From Candidatus Kaiserbacteria bacterium (GTDB taxonomy: Bacteria; Patescibacteriota; Minisyncoccia; Phycocordibacterales; UBA918), in NCBI GenBank assembly GCA_031423775.1, contig JANPGF010000011.1, forward strand, positions 31,502-95,501: a stretch of 64,000 nt of DNA, given 5' to 3'. Both the position numbers and the translations under genes were made by a program. The stretch's first letter is position 1. Each line of letters begins with the position of its first letter. Positions 1,999-64,000 of this stretch are shown here, one piece after another. The notes beneath the pieces are model-generated. The model was given only the letters and a program-made list of their open reading frames with translations, was not told the origin of the DNA and did no database searches.

Positions 1999-3471
1999 TT
2001 AACCCACGTTATGTTCACGCGCAATTTCTTTGAGGGCGGCGGCTTCTTCGGCAGCTTGTTTTGCCTTGCCAGCTTCAGCTAAAATGGTGAGTGCAGCTTC
2101 TGTAAGTGTATTGAGTTCTAAAACCCTTGATTCCAGGTACTCGTTTGAGTTTTTCCCCGGGTCTATCAACACCTCTTCCATGAGTGCATTCAGTATATAT
2201 CCCAGCTTTTTCCCCGGCTTTTCCCCAGTTAACACCATAATACGGGAGCCATCAACTTTGAGCATTTTGACTGAAATTGGATCACGGAGGGCTTCATCCA
2301 CCATGGCTTTGTATTTGCGGAAGCGGAATGGCTGTTCTTTTGGTCTCCCGGTACCAATGCGGTCGCAAACCCGGAGATTCAAGAGGTTTTCAATATTGTT
2401 TTCACCAATACGGACAATAGTGCGGCGGACAGCAGCCAAGGTAATTTCATCCGGATCACTGAAGAACATATGCCAGCGCACCAATTGGACTACTTCATCA
2501 ATTGTTTCTCGCGGCATTTTTAAACGTTCGAGGATTTTCTTGGCCATTTTAGCGCCAACTACTTCGTGACCAAAGAAGGTGTAGTGTTTATTTTTACCAC
2601 CGGTCCTGCGAGTTGAAGGCTTCCCGATGTCGTGTAACAGGGCGGCGAGGCGCATATTGGTTGAAAAACCTTTGTCTGCTGCAGCCTGCAGGGTGCGAAG
2701 GAGATGTTCATAGACATCAAAGGCATGAATCCCACCCTGTTCACAACCCATTGCCTCACGGAGTTCTGGCAGGATGTAGTCTTGAAGGCCCATTTTTTCG
2801 AGTAGAACAATTCCCTGCATTGGTACGTCAGAATTAATGAGTTTCACAAATTCGCTACTCACCCGTTCAATCGCAATTTTCTGTAATAATGGCGCTGTCG
2901 CAGTAATCCCCGCCATAGTTTCAACCTCGATCATAAAATTGAGTTCAGCCGCGAGACGAATCGCTCGCATCAATCGAAGTGCGTCTTCACCAAACCGGTC
3001 GTGTGGGTTCCCGACGGTTTTGATCCGCTTCTTCCGAATATCATCAATCCCCTCATATAAATCTACCGTTTCATCGGTTTTGATCCGGTATGCAATTGCG
3101 TTAATGGTGAAATCACGTCGAGCAAGGTCTTCAGATAGTGAAACTCCAAAGGTGACATGATCTGGACGTCGTGCGTCACTATAGGTTCCTTCGCTTCGGT
3201 ACGGTGTTACTTCCACTACTTTTAAACGAGCATCTTCTGTTTCTTCGTTCTTTACCCCAACGGTGCCGTAGTCGTTGTTGCAGAAACTCTCGGGAAACAG
3301 TGCTTGAATCTTGTCCGGATGAGCGTTGGTAGTAATATCCCAATCCTTTGGCTCTTTGCCTACAACTAAATCCCGCACACACCCCCCAACCAAATACGCC
3401 TCAAACCCCGCGGTTTCAAGGATCTCTGAAATTCGTCGAACCTCAAGCGGGATTTTATGGGCGTCTATCAT
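1999..3471 (-). CDS. cca: CCA-adding tRNA nucleotidyltransferase / poly(A) polymerase family with an HD domain
   Basis: N-terminal GGCVRDLVVGKEPKDWDITT polymerase-beta motif and an HD-domain region (LLHDIGK). The start is most likely MIDAHK at 3471; an alternative upstream ATG near 3522 has a GGAG RBS. Confidence 0.85.
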   Translation of the reverse strand: MIDAHKIPLEVRRISEILETAGFEAYLVGGCVRDLVVGKEPKDWDITTNAHPDKIQALFPESFCNNDYGTVGVKNEETEDARLKVVEVTPYRSEGTYSDARRPDHVTFGVSLSEDLARRDFTINAIAYRIKTDETVDLYEGIDDIRKKRIKTVGNPHDRFGEDALRLMRAIRLAAELNFMIEVETMAGITATAPLLQKIAIERVSSEFVKLINSDVPMQGIVLLEKMGLQDYILPELREAMGCEQGGIHAFDVYEHLLRTLQAAADKGFSTNMRLAALLHDIGKPSTRRTGGKNKHYTFFGHEVVGAKMAKKILERLKMPRETIDEVVQLVRWHMFFSDPDEITLAAVRRTIVRIGENNIENLLNLRVCDRIGTGRPKEQPFRFRKYKAMVDEALRDPISVKMLKVDGSRIMVLTGEKPGKKLGYILNALMEEVLIDPGKNSNEYLESRVLELNTLTEAALTILAEAGKAKQAAEEAAALKEIAREHNVG

Positions 3472-3551
3472 ATATGAATTGTATGGGTAAAGTAGATGTT
3501 TGTACACAACTTCCATGTACATTCGAACTCCAATGCTATGATATATACATG

Positions 3552-12320: not shown

Positions 12321-13004
12321 ATGACAAAAGTTGGTACCTACAAACCTGAAGCCTACGAACAAGCCGTTCAATTTCGGCGTCGCGGCTTCACATACTCTGA
12401 AATAGCCAAGATTTGCGCCGTTTCCCGTGGCACTATCAGTAATTGGCTTAAAAATGAAGACTTTTCGCAAGTCGTGGCCAAAGATAATCAAAAGAAAGCC
12501 GCTCTCGATAATACAAAACGATTATCTTTGATTAATAAAGCTCGCAATAGCGAACGTAAAAATCAGTACGATGCCATCGTAAAGGCTGCGGAAACAGAAT
12601 ATAAGCATTATCGTACCTCCCCGCTCTTTACGGCCGGCCTAGCGCTCTATATGAGTATTGGTGACCATGCTGACGCACGAGTGATTCGTGTAACGAGTAG
12701 TAATAGTAACTTGCACCGCATCTTTATCAGATTTGCTATGGAGTATCTCGGTGTTGAGAAAAAAAATCTTCATATTTGGCTCCTTCTCTATCCTGATCTG
12801 GACGAAGTGACCTGCATGAAACACTGGATCAAGAAAACTAGCCTGAATGCCAGCCATTTCTACAAAAATCAGATAGTAAACAGCCGTAGCAACAAAGCCA
12901 CGTTGCATTTTGGTGTTGGAAATACTATAATCGGCAGTACTTTGCTCAAGCGCAAGTTAGAAACCTGGCTACAGCTTGCAACAAAGGAGCTTACAATCAA
13001 GTAA
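12321..13004 (+). CDS. HTH domain plus LAGLIDADG-like homing-endonuclease-like protein (paralog of 3552-4226)
   Basis: HTH-like AVQFRRRGFTYSEIAKICAVSRGTISNWL plus LFTAGLALYMSIGDHADARVIRV. It is collinear with the 3552-4226 protein, and its stop codon lies 2 nt before tRNA-Gly(GCC). Confidence 0.5.
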   Translation: MTKVGTYKPEAYEQAVQFRRRGFTYSEIAKICAVSRGTISNWLKNEDFSQVVAKDNQKKAALDNTKRLSLINKARNSERKNQYDAIVKAAETEYKHYRTSPLFTAGLALYMSIGDHADARVIRVTSSNSNLHRIFIRFAMEYLGVEKKNLHIWLLLYPDLDEVTCMKHWIKKTSLNASHFYKNQIVNSRSNKATLHFGVGNTIIGSTLLKRKLETWLQLATKELTIK

Positions 13005-13006
13005 AT

Positions 13007-13078
13007 GCGGCCATGGTTAAGTGGTATAATGAGTCCTTGCCAAGGATTAGTCGGGGTTTCGATTACCCCTGGCCGCAC
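13007..13078 (+). tRNA. tRNA-Gly (anticodon GCC)
   Basis: Manual fold: acceptor GCGGCCA/TGGCCGC, D-stem GTTA/TAAT, anticodon stem AGTCC/GGATT with loop TTGCCAA, T-arm GGGGT-TTCGATT-ACCCC. CCA is not encoded. Confidence 0.75.
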
Positions 13079-13110
13079 TTATGAAAAAGACCCTCACACG
13101 GGGTCTTTTT

Positions 13111-13285
13111 CATATGTGCGGCCAGGAGAAAGGTGCCTGCGCACCTTTCGGGGTAATCGAAACCGCCTGAATGATGTAGCTTTGCTACGAATGAGGCGTG
13201 ACCCGCGGCACTTGCTAGATTTGGAGCCGTTAGGCGAACAAATATAGCTTAGTGACCGTCAGGTTTCGATTACCCCTGGCCGCAC
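13111..13285 (+). repeat. tRNA-Gly(GCC)-derived pseudo element: degenerate 5' acceptor half (GCGGCCAGG) plus an exact 24-nt copy of the tRNA 3' half (13261-13284), with about 150 nt of unrelated sequence between them
   Basis: The sequence ggtttcgattacccctggccgcac is an exact 24-nt direct repeat of 13055-13078. Each copy is followed by a terminator-like hairpin. Confidence 0.45.
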
Positions 13286-13467
13286 ATATTAAGAAGACAC
13301 CCTTCTCTAGAAGGGTGTCTTCTTAATTTTGCCCGGGTAATCGAAAGCCCGATTGAGCTATATTGGAAGCGTAGCGCACCAATCTAGCCAATTGGGGTAC
13401 TGCTCCTGTAAGGAGGCGATTACCCCCCCCATAGTCAGATTTACACTCTCCATCTATACTTCTACCA

Positions 13468-47746: not shown

Positions 47747-48160
47747 TTGCGTGAGTGCATCTGTTAGCTGTTGCGCTATCTGAGTCAATAGTTCGTCCGA
47801 AGCTTCGGTGCTTGAGGTGAGTGCCCGGCTCAGATTGTGGTCAGTTTTTGGCATTGGATAGATTTTAATGTGTACATGAGGTACTTCAAAACCTTCAACG
47901 ACAAGGCAGGTACGTTCCGTAGAAAATGCCCGATCTGATGCTTGCGCAATTTTCTTAGCAACAGTAAAAAGGTGTAAATAGGTTTCGTCGTCTAAATTAA
48001 AAGCGTAACTGACTTGTTGTTTTGGAATAACAACTGATTGGCCGTGTATTCCCGGAAATTTATCGAGTATACAAATGCAGTATTCATCCTCGTATATAAC
48101 ATGAGCGGGGATTTCACGGTTGATAATGCGTGTAAAAATAGATGGTGATTCGGTTGTCAT
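47729..48160 (-). CDS. HIT-family (histidine triad) protein
   Basis: Histidine triad HVHIKIYP near the C-terminus. Confidence 0.8.
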   Translation of the reverse strand: MTTESPSIFTRIINREIPAHVIYEDEYCICILDKFPGIHGQSVVIPKQQVSYAFNLDDETYLHLFTVAKKIAQASDRAFSTERTCLVVEGFEVPHVHIKIYPMPKTDHNLSRALTSSTEASDELLTQIAQQLTDALTQQKTSR

Positions 48161-59194: not shown

Positions 59195-59480
59195 ATCACT
59201 TCATCTGCGTTGTTGGGACTACATAAAATTTTGTTCACCTTACGTTAAAGTAAGACTCACCAAAATTTTATTTGCCCGCCTAGCAGCTAAAGCAATTTCT
59301 TTCGCTTTCAAAAACTGGGACATAATGTATTCCAGTAGAAGATTACCAATAGTCTATATTCGCTACAGATACCGGATGCAGCTCAACCGCAAGGTACGGA
59401 GCATAGGATATGCGAAGAATGAAACAAGAGGCTTTGCCATACTATTTCATTCTTAATTATTAAAATTAAGAACTCACAAA

Positions 59481-59951: not shown

Positions 59952-60075
59952 TTCCAAAATTAGAGACTGGCGTTGTCGTTACGGTAAAAATGTAGCTCAC
60001 TGGACTATTCGTCCCATTCGCTTCATTTTTACCTAGACTCCTAGCCATTCATCTAATTTTGAAATCACCAACAAG

Positions 60076-60103
60076 AAAAAAGACCCGTTATGGGTCTTTT
60101 TTC
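60076..60103 (+). terminator. Terminator after rpsG
   Basis: Hairpin aaagacccgttatgggtcttt followed by tttctt. Confidence 0.55.
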
Positions 60104-60199
60104 TTGCCCGCCTAGCGACTAATTCAAATTCGGACATTTTAGTTTTGAACGAACTACTGCGTTCCTTAATCTGCTCCCCAGTCTGTCAGCATTTTGTGA

Positions 60200-60925
60200 A
60201 TGAGTTGCTTTTTAATTGCAAAAGAGCATAATCACCATATGCATCAAACAACTATTATATACTCCATGGCAGCTACTCATGCCAGTGTGTGGAATCAACT
60301 TATGTTTACCCTCAGTCTGCTATTGAGTAATCTAGTTTCCTTCGTAGAGGTTTTTGGTACAGTGCTGTCTGTGTTAATTGCAGTTGTTTTATATATATTA
60401 AAAATAAGAAAAGACCATAGAGACGCTGCCATGATTCTTTTGATGGAAATAAGAAATGCAGAAAAAGAAATTGAGGAAATAAAAAAAGCGAGTGTCATCG
60501 TTGAAACAACCTCCGTAATGCCAATCAATAGTTGGAGAAAGTTCCAGCATTACTTTGTTTCAAAATTAGACAATGACGATTTAATTTTATTGAATAATTT
60601 TTATAATACCTGCTCTTTGATTGACGAAGAAGTTAATAGGCTAAAAAATCTTTGGCCGATTGCAAACGAAGAGAAGATAAAAATTTCCCAGCAGGTTTTT
60701 GGTGATCTAGCAGTAGAATTTTTTGAAAAGACAGATAATTTTACTGAAGGCAGTGAATATTTAATTAAGAGAGAAAAGATTCTCAAAATCTTGAACAATG
60801 AAACTAATGGATTTATACCTGATTTACCAACTAATAGAATAAAGCAGTATTTACCCAAGATATCTAACGTCACAACCACAACGTGTGGGGATAAAATAAA
60901 AAGAATCGCCGCACGTTGGTTCTGA
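60200..60925 (+). CDS. Hypothetical AT-rich (about 28% GC) membrane-anchored coiled-coil protein, probably horizontally acquired
   Basis: Long ORF with strongly deviant base composition. One TM helix then Lys/Glu-rich helical region. No family recognised. Confidence 0.5.
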   Translation: MSCFLIAKEHNHHMHQTTIIYSMAATHASVWNQLMFTLSLLLSNLVSFVEVFGTVLSVLIAVVLYILKIRKDHRDAAMILLMEIRNAEKEIEEIKKASVIVETTSVMPINSWRKFQHYFVSKLDNDDLILLNNFYNTCSLIDEEVNRLKNLWPIANEEKIKISQQVFGDLAVEFFEKTDNFTEGSEYLIKREKILKILNNETNGFIPDLPTNRIKQYLPKISNVTTTTCGDKIKRIAARWF

Positions 60926-61038
60926 GTCTTTGTGGTTAATGGGGGTTCATCCGTTATTTATTTAAAACTTATGGTCTAGTGCTGCAAACAAAACGTCCCA
61001 CAGTTGCCGGTGGGGCGTTTCTGTGGGGCGCGACTGAT

Positions 61039-61455
61039 TTAGAAGGGGAATTTGTCTTCTGGGTCAGTGTCATCATCAGGGTATGGATCGTCGTCTAGCA
61101 GGGCAGTATTTTCTGCTTTCACTTCTATGTAGGATTCTGCCGCATAGATTGTTTCGCCGTTCAATGCTACTTTCGCGACTAGTCTTGAAGAAACTACCAT
61201 TGTGACAGCAACCCCGATGCTGCTTTCTTGGCGAAGTTCTGCTTCCATTGCATCGAGTTCATCGTACGGACAGTCTCGTTCATTTACGTGTTCGACTTCT
61301 ACCATTAGTCTCCGTGCATGACGACTTTTACCAATTTGGTATACTCTCCGTTCGTAGCGTTCACCTGTGCCGATATAACAGCGGCACCGGCTACACAGAT
61401 ACGTACTGTGACTTTTCCCACGAAAGACGTGGGTACTAGTTTCTGGCATCCACAT
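61039..61455 (-). CDS. Hypothetical protein with an acidic C-terminus (cassette-like gene)
   Basis: Strong RBS (AGAGGAG 7 nt upstream of the ATG). A degenerate copy of the inter-cassette hairpin repeat lies downstream at about 60990-61030. Confidence 0.5.
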   Translation of the reverse strand: MWMPETSTHVFRGKSHSTYLCSRCRCYIGTGERYERRVYQIGKSRHARRLMVEVEHVNERDCPYDELDAMEAELRQESSIGVAVTMVVSSRLVAKVALNGETIYAAESYIEVKAENTALLDDDPYPDDDTDPEDKFPF

Positions 61456-61540
61456 GACCCACTCCTCTTTGGTTGCTGTGCTTTTCTTTGCAAAATATAT
61501 AGTTTATTAAGGTAAAGTCAACGTTGTATGAGATGTAACA

Positions 61541-61668
61541 GCAAAACCCTAAAACTACGTTGTGGGTTTGGGGGTTACGGTGCAGAAAACGTAGTACTGG
61601 GGTATAAAAACACTGTTTAATAAATAAAAACGCCACCTTCGAAGATTGGCCTGGGTGGCGTTTCTTCG
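61541..61668 (-). repeat. Inter-cassette repeat R3, copy 1
   Basis: Shares aaaccctaaaactgtggggtgggtttggggNttacggNNcNgaaaacgtagtNctNgggtataaaaacactg with copies at 62136-62235 and 62836-62936. It ends in a terminator-like hairpin. Confidence 0.6.
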
Positions 61669-61682
61669 TTTGGTGGCGGGTG

Positions 61683-62046
61683 TTCAGAATGGGATTTCTC
61701 CGGCATCGTAGCCGCTGAAGCCGGTTGCGGTAGTGAGCGGTTCAGGGGTGAGTGCCAACCTCGTCTCGGACTCGGTGGGTGCTTGTGTCGGGCCGGTTTT
61801 CTTCCCAAGTGCTTCATTGAGCGCGTACAGGTACTTGACCCGGATGGTGATGACTGTCTCTTAGCCGTTCTTATCGAATTGGGCAAGGAATTGGTCACCG
61901 ATTTTCTTGGTCCAAGCCGTTGTTTGCAGTACCGGGGCCGCATACTGAAGCAGGTCGTGCCCCGGTTTAAGTTGGTGTAATTCATTCGTGGCACTTTCTA
62001 TGAGTTCGAAAAGTGCATCGATATCGCTTGCCGGAATCACAGGCAT
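61683..62046 (-). pseudogene. Cassette gene interrupted by a single in-frame TAA (61 aa + 59 aa in the same frame)
   Basis: The ORF from the ATG at 62046 (RBS GGAAGGA) reads ...QFDKNG, then TAA at 61861-61863, then continues in frame (ETVITIRVKYLYALNEAL...GEIPF) to a stop near 61683. Confidence 0.4.
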
Positions 62047-62135
62047 TCTTTATATCCTTCCAATGATGGCGATAGGGCAACTTTATAGTAAAGCCGCATT
62101 CTGTCAATATTGTAGGATAAACTAATAAAATAATA

Positions 62136-62235
62136 ACCTTAAAAACTGTGGGGTGGGTTTGGGGGTTACGGGACGGAAAACGTAGCTCTGGGGTATAAAA
62201 ACACTGCCGTCCGTTTCTGGGGCGGCAGTGTTTTT
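62136..62235 (-). repeat. Inter-cassette repeat R3, copy 2
   Basis: See copy 1. It lies immediately after the toxin stop codon and contains the hairpin cactgccgtccgtttctggggcggcagtg plus a T-run. Confidence 0.6.
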
Positions 62236-62488
62236 AATAGAGTTCGCTGTGGGTGCCGATTCGGAGGAAGGAGATTGCATTTTTATTACGGAGGAATTGG
62301 GCTCGGTAGTCGCCGGTTATGTTGATAGTTTCGATTGGGTAGTCTGCACCAGTGAGGGTATGGAGGTGGAGGAGGGGATGGTTTGGTGTTTCGATAAATA
62401 GGTGGAGACGTTCATCAAATTTAGCCTGAATTTTTTGCGGGAGTTTTTTATACTGCTTTTTAAACTCCTTTCGAAATTCTATTTCCAT
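62234..62488 (-). CDS. Type II toxin, RelE/ParE family
   Basis: 84 aa with the RelE/ParE pattern (KKLPQKIQAKFDERLHLFIETP ... GDYRAQF ... IGTHSELY). Its start is 15 nt after the antitoxin stop. Confidence 0.8.
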   Translation of the reverse strand: MEIEFRKEFKKQYKKLPQKIQAKFDERLHLFIETPNHPLLHLHTLTGADYPIETINITGDYRAQFLRNKNAISFLRIGTHSELY

Positions 62489-62502
62489 ACCAGTATTCGG
62501 TA

Positions 62503-62775
62503 TTACTTATGTAGCCAGTCAATCGCGTCAATCGCAGTGGCAAAGCGAGGCGAAATGCTTTTTCCGGCGCGGACTTCTTTAATCGCTTGATTCAGTTCTT
62601 TAATAACTGATGGTCGAAGTTCTGGTTCACGCGTCACTTTAAATTCACCAGATTCAATAAATGACTTTAGCTGGGCGTTTACCACAGTAGAGAGAGGAAT
62701 ACCTAAATGCTTAGCCAGAGCCTGAGCTCGGTCTTTGATATCTTTGTCAGTTTTAACGTTCAAGACAGTTTTCAT
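62503..62775 (-). CDS. Type II antitoxin (RelB/DinJ or ParD-like) paired with the downstream toxin
   Basis: 90-aa ORF immediately upstream of the toxin. Its own TTGACA-16-TACAAT promoter lies upstream, on the minus strand around 62790-62820. Confidence 0.65.
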   Translation of the reverse strand: MKTVLNVKTDKDIKDRAQALAKHLGIPLSTVVNAQLKSFIESGEFKVTREPELRPSVIKELNQAIKEVRAGKSISPRFATAIDAIDWLHK

Positions 62776-62835
62776 AATATAACTATTGTATACACAACAG
62801 TTAATTTGTCAACAAATAAAAATGTGCACAGAAAC

Positions 62836-62936
62836 AAAACCCTAAAAACTGTGGGGTGGGTTTGGGGATTACGGGACAGAAACGTAGTGCTCCGGTATAA
62901 AAACACTGCCGTCCCGAGGTTCGGGACGGCAGTGCA
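62836..62936 (-). repeat. Inter-cassette repeat R3, copy 3
   Basis: See copy 1. Hairpin cactgccgtcccgaggttcgggacggcagtg. Confidence 0.6.
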
Positions 62937-62956
62937 TTTGGTGGAGTGCCACACAT

Positions 62957-63580
62957 TTAGTATTCTGACGGACAACTGGTCGTCGCTCCGATTGATTGTT
63001 TGCTTCGGATTGAGACGCCGGTTCCGTCAATACATTGGTAGAGTTTCCAGTTTGGCAGATACATTTCGACGGCGTAGCTGGTTTTTGAGTCGTGACAGTT
63101 TAAGACCGGAATATTTGGTGTGTCCTCGCGGTGAATGAATAATTTAAGAATTGGTCCAAAGCACTTATTTTTATCTTTCCACAACAGGTCATTGGCAGAC
63201 AGAGTGGTGTTCGCAAGCGCGCTCGAGTCACAGAACGATTCGTATGAATTACCAGTGCGCTGAAAGTAATCCTTGGCCACTGTTTGTAATTGCTGTACTT
63301 TTGCCGCTAAACTCCCGTCGAGCCCGATGTTACGAGCATCAGACAGTGAAGCCAGGAGTATGAAAAATATGAGTGGCGTGAGAAATAAGAGAAACCAAAC
63401 GAATCGAGAAAGAGTAGTGGTGAGTGTGACGGTTATGGAAAGGTAATACGAGATACCAATCGATACAATGAGGATGAGCGGCAAGAGTATTTCGGCGTGA
63501 CAAAGGTAAAAGAGTCGGGTAATTAAAATGACTATAACAGTGGTCGGTGGTAAGAAAAATAAGGTTCGAAGTAATCTCAT
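62957..63580 (-). CDS. Hypothetical polytopic membrane protein (cassette-like gene)
   Basis: ORF with 4 N-terminal TM helices and a Cys-containing C-terminal domain. Confidence 0.4.
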   Translation of the reverse strand: MRLLRTLFFLPPTTVIVILITRLFYLCHAEILLPLILIVSIGISYYLSITVTLTTTLSRFVWFLLFLTPLIFFILLASLSDARNIGLDGSLAAKVQQLQTVAKDYFQRTGNSYESFCDSSALANTTLSANDLLWKDKNKCFGPILKLFIHREDTPNIPVLNCHDSKTSYAVEMYLPNWKLYQCIDGTGVSIRSKQSIGATTSCPSEY

Positions 63581-63659
63581 TGATAAATTATAGCATCGGA
63601 GAAATTGAGACAGGAACTTTTTAATCTGAACAGGTCTTGCCTGTTCAAAAATATTATTA

Positions 63660-63712
63660 ATGGGGGATAAAAATACTGCCTCCCAGATGACTGGGTGGCA
63701 GTTTCGTGTGGT
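63660..63712 (-). repeat. Inter-cassette repeat R3, partial copy 4
   Basis: ggggataaaaatactgcctcccagatgactgggtggcagttt matches the 3' half of R3, including the hairpin. Confidence 0.45.
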
Positions 63713-63730
63713 GTGAAGTTAGAACAGTGG

Positions 63731-63919
63731 CTAGTTCATAATGCACAGTGTTGCGATCTGGATGACCGCTAGGGCGATGAAGATCCAGCCGATATTCTTG
63801 TCACGAGCGGTAGGGATATATTCTGCCGTAAGCGTGCTGTATGGCCAGTTACGTTTTCCGTCCAAAAGTGTACTTATGCCCAACAAAATACAGCCGAGCG
63901 CTCCTAATAGTAAAGCCAT
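63731..63919 (-). CDS. Small two-TM membrane protein (63 aa; cassette-like gene)
   Basis: Strong RBS (GGAGG 6 nt upstream of the ATG at 63919). Confidence 0.4.
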   Translation of the reverse strand: MALLLGALGCILLGISTLLDGKRNWPYSTLTAEYIPTARDKNIGWIFIALAVIQIATLCIMN

Positions 63920-64000
63920 GTCGTCCTCCTCTCTTATACTCAAGAACAAACGTTTTTGTATGGTTCGCATACTAACGTAATCAAAATAAGAAAGCAAATG

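Follow-up and report, generated by a model that had tools for sequence, protein, structure and literature searches.

A probable hotspot of insulated gene modules between rpsG and a membrane-protein gene in a Candidatus Kaiserbacteria genome

A 64,000-nucleotide (nt) stretch of DNA from a Candidatus Kaiserbacteria bacterium (contig JANPGF010000011.1 of assembly GCA_031423775.1, positions 31,502 to 95,501 of the forward strand; hereafter the window) carries, downstream of the ribosomal protein genes rpsL and rpsG, a block of small genes with copies of a repeat of about 100 nt, here called the junction element, between them. We conclude that this block probably occupies a hypervariable hotspot between rpsG and a gene for a membrane protein of 115 amino acids (aa), which accommodates insulated modules and in which the repeats at the module junctions act as terminators and also as portable homology or recombination sites. 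A preliminary description made from the letters of this DNA had proposed an array resembling a sedentary integron or, failing that, a "different repeat-mediated cassette system". The gene-repeat-gene-repeat architecture on which it built was borne out, an element being found at each of the five gene boundaries inside the island, and its fallback is the closest fit to both the architecture and the population pattern.

Conserved flanks and differing cargo

The block (60.9-64.0 kilobases, kb) consists of one plus-strand gene encoding 241 aa and then five minus-strand units (Table 1). Contigs encoding an identical RpsG share rpsL-rpsG and the downstream terminator region with the window up to 60129-60168, and past this point they show no relationship to any part of the window. 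The contigs L037, L050, L055 and L059 rejoin the window only at the membrane gene (window-equivalent ~64061-64460, on L001), where conservation on the far side covers this gene and extends into the start of a NUDIX gene. Since synteny is lost at 60168 and restored at the membrane gene, the block is an island between two conserved flanks. A Logan contig (SRR20217181) that matches 62061-64000 exactly and extends ~900 nt further places the end of the island ~60-100 nt past 64000, ahead of the conserved 115-aa membrane-protein gene: ~100 nt past 64000 the genes turn to the plus strand, with the membrane-protein gene followed by a 58-aa gene. Since these next genes are plus-strand genes of the conserved flank, the array stops at ~64000 and does not run on past the window edge, as had been supposed; nor is there, in the ~900 nt recovered past 64000, the recombinase that had been considered possible just outside. 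On the other side, the window genes upstream of the island are housekeeping genes (TIM, PGK, RecJ, ComEC, SOD, M50 protease, rpsL and rpsG).

We reached the islands of relatives, in partial genomes only, from homologs of the 115-aa membrane protein. In the window, L037, L050, L055 and L059, rpsG and the membrane gene bracket differing cargo, and the cassettes thus differ in presence and absence among related genomes, a polymorphism that the preliminary description had proposed to look for. L037 and L052 (the latter contig covering the membrane-gene side only) have genes of 130, 375 and 139 aa; L050 has a 310-aa gene, a 157-aa gene, ParE/Phd, NUDIX and RelB/YafQ; L055-L058 have a 219-aa gene, a small open reading frame (ORF), relBE, RelB/YafQ and a 140-aa gene; and L059-L062 have an HD-domain gene, relBE, ParE/Phd, RelB/YafQ, a 210-aa gene and UPF0114. 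The relBE module of the window (62161/62192-62933) recurs at 87-88% DNA identity in L055 and in L059-L062 beside other neighbours, with a type-A junction element (see below) on its promoter side in all three contexts, and the ParE/Phd, RelB/YafQ (relB2/yafQ) and 138-aa modules are likewise common to different arrangements. The breakpoints of homology fall at the edge of the element's core or hairpin in six of eight cases. Profile searches detected ~19 copies of the element in these loci, all within islands and all (~19/~19) in one orientation relative to rpsG, whatever the orientation of the genes; certain copies sit between divergent genes or between two plus-strand genes. The more distant relatives L063-L072 also have a variable island, with other toxin-antitoxin (TA) pairs and no such element.

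Anatomy, distribution and possible role of the junction element

The island holds three full copies of the repeat, one partial copy and one divergent copy of a second type, type B (c0 to c4, Table 1). That the family is real and non-random, as first proposed, is evident from the 17-mers GGGTTTGGGGGTTACGG and GGGGTATAAAAACACTG, which have 3 and 4 matches, all at 61.5-63.7 kb and none in the rest of the 64 kb, whereas shuffled sequence gave 0.10-0.15 matches on average; the cores of the full copies are 86-90% identical to one another. An alignment of the three full type-A copies of the window with five full copies of relatives gave the plus-strand order G-rich box (CCCTAAAAACYGTGGGGTGGGTTTGGGGGTTACGGGACGGAAAACGTAG..GGGG), then TATAAAAACACTG, then the hairpin ACTGCCG...CGGCAGT. 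TATAAAAACACTG is invariant in these eight copies and almost invariant over junction elements generally, and the 13-nt core adjoining the hairpin is unchanged in 8/8. In type B another box, AAAATGGGGAYAGG...TTTAAAANCGTGTTGTAAYTT, stands before the same core and hairpin, and the degenerate copy that had been seen after the 138-aa gene proved to be a divergent member of this type. The hairpin of c1 differs from that of the other copies (ACGCCACC...GGTGGCGT) and recurs alone in L055 (2561-2627), L073 and L074. Conservation of the hairpin is mainly one of sequence, with 88% of cells paired and double changes at just 2 pairs; folding revealed no supported structure in the element apart from this terminal hairpin, and no Rfam family matched the element at gathering or permissive thresholds.

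Read on the gene strand, each unit consists of a stop codon, 4-28 nt, a GC hairpin with a T-run, a conserved C-rich box of ~65 nt, an AT-rich spacer of 20-29 nt, a promoter-like site and then the next gene, in agreement with the placement of the copies just 3' of minus-strand ORFs in the preliminary description. The hairpins follow the stops of the 62-aa, 207-aa, relE, interrupted and 138-aa genes at these distances (for the 138-aa gene it is the hairpin of c0 that is so placed, with a terminator-like site at 61014-60997), the minus-strand T-runs after them read TTTTTAT or TTTTG, and folding compared with shuffled sequence gave z-scores of -2.8 to -4.7. Hairpins with T-runs in such positions are predicted to be intrinsic (Rho-independent) terminators. 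The sigma70-like promoter-like sites located 20-29 nt beyond c1-c3 are the three best of the 5.5-kb region, and the best of all is that of relBE, so that the TA pair does have a promoter-like site of its own, as had been claimed. On these predictions the modules appear to be self-sufficient for expression, each with a promoter, one or two genes and a terminator.

The position of the element next to promoters also bears on a different reading, in which the type-A box serves the minus-strand modules as a common upstream operator and co-regulates their promoters. For seven of the eight type-A copies, the -35 of a minus-strand gene lies 20-29 nt downstream, and the box is conserved above synonymous sites: orthologous A-boxes are 83-86% identical versus 64-78% at relBE third codon positions, which suggests some constraint, or else concerted evolution. 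We nevertheless regard co-regulation as very improbable, because the distance to the -35 varies, the copy at 496-586 of L059rc is without such a gene, type-B copies stand mostly after plus-strand genes, neither a regulator nor an Rfam match was found, and the copies differ by 1-nt indels that are incompatible with a conserved small ORF. Other candidate roles were rejected as well. The same indels shift the frame between copies and rule out a small conserved ORF across the repeat, and a plus-strand small RNA is ruled out, with neither an upstream promoter-like site nor a conserved fold besides the hairpin. A canonical G-quadruplex motif is present in c2 and c3, absent from c1 and, by eye, absent from several of the relatives' copies, and is thus not a conserved feature; an anti-terminator pairing of the A-box (CGGGACGG) with the 5' arm of the hairpin gave, by eye, only a partial match and no covariation.

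The distribution of the element bears on whether it takes part in module exchange at all. A generic REP/BOX-like repeat or duplicated terminator family, with no such part and with the island variable for unrelated reasons, would account for a hairpin and T-run like those of an ordinary intrinsic terminator, for a stem that is conserved in sequence with little covariation, and for the related hairpin that L037 has 3' of its membrane gene; the presence in the window of several further families of dispersed intergenic repeats also speaks for it. We consider this explanation unlikely, because the copies are confined to the island in the ~100 kb examined (with none in the remaining 60 kb of the window or in the ~35 kb of flanks of L037, L050, L052 and L055) and are uniformly oriented regardless of the genes. 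Moreover, certain copies separate divergent promoters and would have nothing to terminate there, the box of 55-65 nt has no terminator function yet is conserved above synonymous sites, and the breakpoints of homology fall at the elements. The idea of a REP-like terminator family, also raised in the preliminary description, holds only for the hairpin part, and the genome-wide spread that a generic repeat would have was not seen in this ~100 kb. Scans of GTDB representatives, JGI metagenomes and IMG/VR for the exact core returned no match that reached beyond the exact-match pattern, and missed the mismatched copy in L055, a true copy in a JGI contig that escaped through mismatches in the 19-mer; because exact-core matches never extended into the rest of the element, it is probably no widespread family in these collections.

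The other intergenic repeat families in the window are of 50-70 nt and 70-90% identity, with members tens of kb apart and in both orientations (24333-24403/55045-55115, 4476-4535/21473-21532, 28570-28622/54615-54667, 13345-13414/54518-54587 and 44104-44183/55160-55343). The genome carries MITE/REP-like repeats generally, in a distribution quite unlike that of the island element.

In the hotspot that we favour, the junction elements would insulate the modules transcriptionally from each other and from the rps operon, and would be the crossover sites for the gain, loss and reshuffling of modules. Crossover could proceed by RecA-type homologous recombination, either in the flanks or within the 20-100 nt of shared junction sequence, after uptake of DNA from related strains, or alternatively by a recombinase encoded elsewhere. 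With ComEC and type IV pilus genes (PilB and PilC) present in the window, DNA uptake with homologous recombination would be one economical mechanism, and the locus has the traits of a homologous-recombination hotspot of the minimal-mobile-element kind, namely the same flanks, varying cargo and no element-encoded recombinase. Several points weigh against this interpretation. No recombination event or intermediate was seen, and we therefore infer the mobility of the modules from comparing arrangements; the genomes are partial, so copies elsewhere in them are possible; and with so little covariation the conservation of the hairpin could stem from recent common descent, not selection. The element is missing from one boundary in L050 (4720) and from both island edges, the G-rich box has no role explained by this scheme, and the promoters and terminators are consensus predictions only. 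Insertions in relatives occur at several positions, not one, and two of them are flanked by 65-80 nt direct duplications of other sequences, perfect or near-perfect and containing palindromes (the perfect 80-nt duplication of L050 comes from a metagenomic contig and could be an assembly effect), which points to more than one mechanism at work.

These duplications, with their palindromes, are among the features that a new site- or structure-specific system would explain, one in which a trans-encoded recombinase (tyrosine/Xer-like, serine or HUH) recognises TATAAAAACACTG and the hairpin and modules move as circles. Such a system would also suit a 13-nt core that is invariant beside the hairpin, the strictly uniform direct orientation of the copies and the clustering of breakpoints at core or hairpin. 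We judge it quite unlikely: none of the sequences examined encodes a candidate enzyme, neither circle nor deletion junctions were seen, the dif-like palindrome of the relatives is absent from the window and overlaps the promoter of a TA pair, a place where an operator palindrome would be no surprise, and homologous recombination accounts for the same breakpoints. A rather low probability likewise attaches to the proposal that the junction element (TATAAAAACACTG, hairpin and type-specific box) is the site of an undescribed, non-integron cassette-capture system with its recombinase encoded elsewhere and its hotspot beside rpsG.

The dif-like palindrome itself (ATACCATAATGTATATTATGGTAT) lies in the relB2/yafQ promoter of L050 (5318-5345), L055 (3631-3658) and L059 (reverse complement, 1296-1360 and 2292-2355), and it was not found in the window. 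Its central 16 nt are 16/16 identical to the core of Escherichia coli dif. In L059, two direct copies of a 65-nt stretch with ATACCATAATGTATATTATGGTAT flank the ParE/Phd module. A search for dif-like 11-6-11 sites (28 nt, XerC-spacer-XerD) found none in the island, and the sole match in the window, at 48158, is a chance match with 3 mismatches.

Island genes and surrounding sequence

Table 1. Positions of the variable island, its genes, junction elements and promoter-like sites in the window.
Feature	Position	Strand	Remarks
Strain-variable island	60169..64000		begins where synteny with relatives stops (60168)
241-aa orphan gene, first island module	60200..60925	+	GC 33.2%
c0, type B	60937..61033	+	box TTAATGGGGGTTCATCCGTTATTTATTTAAAAC; hairpin ~60990-61021; aligned with type-B copies of L037, L052, L055 and L059
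138-aa orphan gene	61039..61455	-	ORF; homologs in rpsG island of L073 and L074
Promoter-like site, 138-aa gene	61494..61521	-	TTGACT-16-TATATT; 10/12 consensus matches
c1, type A	61541..61680	+	G-rich box, core GGGGTATAAAAACACTG (61599-61615), hairpin ~61626-61665
Interrupted orphan gene	61684..62046	-	61 codons, in-frame TAA (61861-61863), 58 open codons
Promoter-like site, interrupted gene	62080..62107	-	TTGACA-16-TAAAGT
c2, type A	62136..62235	+	hairpin 62203-62229, 4 nt past relE stop
relB (62775-62503) and relE/ParE (62488-62234)	62234..62775	-	type II toxin-antitoxin operon
Promoter-like site, relBE, best of the region	62785..62812	-	TTGACA-16-TACAAT; 11/12 consensus matches
c3, type A	62836..62940	+	hairpin 62905-62933; accompanies relBE in all three genomic contexts
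207-aa orphan gene	62957..63580	-	N-terminal half hydrophobic; cluster of one member
c4, partial	63657..63704	+	core GGGGGATAAAAATACTG and hairpin, without G-rich box
62-aa hydrophobic orphan gene	63731..63919	-	final module before conserved flank

The cargo was scanned with PADLOC and PHROG and the TA pair alone matched; the 241-aa product has no significant Pfam, PHROG or PADLOC match, and its gene is less AT-rich than first described, the GC content having been put at about 28%. In the TA pair, a small antitoxin gene is separated by a gap of 14 nt from an adjacent gene for a RelE/ParE-fold toxin, the arrangement of type II RelBE/ParDE systems, and the pair is preceded by its own promoter-like site. 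The toxin assignment of the preliminary description was confirmed (Pfam ParE_toxin, 26.8 bits with a cutoff of 23; PHROG RelE-like, 5.5e-7), whereas that of a RelB-like antitoxin stays below threshold, the matches to RelB and DUF6364 both lying under the Pfam cutoffs. The in-frame TAA and the small membrane proteins described earlier were also found again, the products of the 207-aa and 62-aa genes being visibly hydrophobic. The 58-codon part of the interrupted gene ends ...GEIPF, its terminator hairpin is placed after the second stop, not after the TAA, and a homolog search with this gene returned nothing; it is probably a decaying orphan gene. An AlphaFold model of the 138-aa protein had a pLDDT of 36 and was unusable. 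This protein and all five of its homologs have an acidic C-terminal tail, DD(D/E)IPF, in the window protein PEDKFPF, and the interrupted gene (61684-61860) likewise ends ...DAGEIPF. The DD(D/E)IPF tail is like the C-terminal tip motif of bacterial SSB, and the two genes may encode small proteins that mimic the SSB tail.

Around the near flank of the island, a long hairpin with a conserved loop region (CTGGACTATTCGTCCCA) lies directly after rpsG (59983-60033). Equivalents are present in L037 (2360-2410 and 2548-2596), L063 (9503-9553) and L067 (3124-3170 and 3238-3286), so that this hairpin is kept even in distant relatives and duplicated in some; it has no Rfam match and may represent either a structured element 3' of the rps operon genes or one more repeat family. 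A further motif, CTTGCCCGCCTAGCRRCTAA, occurs after the terminators of both rpsL and rpsG (59266-59299 and 60098-60131). The region of CTTGCCCGCCTAGCRRCTAA is found in the middle of the island in L059 (reverse complement, 3077-3147), which indicates that modules were inserted between rpsG and the motif, and in L050 a perfect 80-nt direct repeat (2276-2355 and 3452-3531), which holds the rpsG terminator and the start of CTTGCCCGCCTAGCRRCTAA, flanks the 310-aa gene. The rpsL-rpsG spacer (59195-59480) has 286 nt, the first 140 nt of which are unalignable to those of relatives that are 94% identical in both genes, and L044 has an insertion sequence (DDE_Tnp_1) just upstream of rpsL; the entire rps neighbourhood is plastic. 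Upstream of rpsL, the genes for 269 aa and 440 aa share a C-terminal segment (56943-57034/58439-58530; 92 nt, 72% identical), and relatives have paralogs of different sizes in their place; their products are probably variable surface proteins. Far from the island, the 3' part of tRNA-Gly(GCC) (13007-13078; region 12321-13300) is repeated at 13262-13298 (92%) and inverted at 13101-13131, with a gene for a 227-aa HTH_23/HTH_28 protein adjoining immediately upstream, and this region looks like the scar of a tRNA-integrated element.

Integrons and other known systems

A sedentary chromosomal integron, or an attC cluster lacking integrase (CALIN), with the repeats as attC sites, was the reading suggested at the outset by the gene-repeat-gene-repeat layout, the co-oriented small ORFs, the TA cargo and the homogeneity of the repeats in the array, and a cassette content that varies among relatives is in keeping with it. 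No recombinase or transposase Pfam domain is present in the 52 ORFs of the 64 kb, however, nor in the precomputed Pfam annotation of the relatives' islands and their flanks of 5-10 kb, and the array ends on both sides at housekeeping or conserved genes. A search of both strands of 60101-64000 found zero RYYYAAC...GTTRRRY pairs at spacings of 45-150 nt, and the fold is that of a perfect terminal hairpin with an unstructured box, not of an imperfect R/L-box hairpin with extrahelical bases. Integron cassettes seldom contain promoters and are mostly expressed from Pc, whereas three units of the island have a strong promoter-like site of their own, and the insertions in relatives occupy several positions as opposed to a single attI. 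Judged on its sequence, the block is not an integron; the reading is largely refuted, with no recombinase domain, attC core pair or attC-like fold, and we leave it next to no probability.

To our knowledge, repeat-bounded cassette arrays are known almost solely as integrons. On the explanation that we prefer, this lineage, which is known from metagenomes alone, keeps a dedicated hotspot for stacking and exchanging insulated accessory modules, many of them TA pairs and set apart by a purpose-built repeat, without an integrase. Should modules indeed recombine at the junction element, organisms regarded as poor in mobile DNA would have a new way of capturing genes; if the element is merely portable homology with a terminator, the island would still be a clean natural case of modular, insulated gene stacking. 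A variable island would also account for assemblies of these genomes breaking right after rpsG.

Like integron arrays and CALINs (Cury et al. 2016, PMC4889954), the island combines small orphan genes and TA pairs, most of them facing the same way, with repeats of ~100 nt that are homogeneous within the array and in one orientation, and its cassettes vary among close relatives. Unlike them, it has no intI, attI, R''/R' cores or imperfect attC hairpin, each of its modules seems to have a promoter and a terminator of its own, its genes may face either way and insertion takes place at several points, not at one attI. The host also differs, in that the gene content suggests a Patescibacteria-like host with a reduced genome, and very small genomes are without integrons (PMC4889954).

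Pneumococcal BOX, Neisseria Correia and enterobacterial REP/BIME elements are scattered over whole genomes in either orientation and number tens to hundreds of copies. The junction element resembles them as a modular intergenic box and hairpin with possible terminator or insulator activity, and differs, in the ~100 kb examined, in being limited to one hotspot, where it stands in one orientation at the boundaries of modules. The pdif modules (IMEX) of Acinetobacter are small, often encode TA pairs and are bounded by short recombination sites at which XerC/XerD encoded elsewhere mobilise them; the island modules are likewise small and often TA pairs, and one module of a relative is flanked by direct dif-like palindromes, whereas the junction element is of ~100 nt, has a perfect hairpin and is not alternately inverted. 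In the minimal mobile elements of Neisseria, cassettes located between conserved genes are swapped by transformation and homologous recombination. The hotspot beside rpsG shares with these a fixed site, alternative cassettes in different strains, the lack of an element-encoded recombinase and the presence of uptake machinery, and it is set apart from them by stacking several modules with a dedicated, uniformly oriented junction repeat between them.

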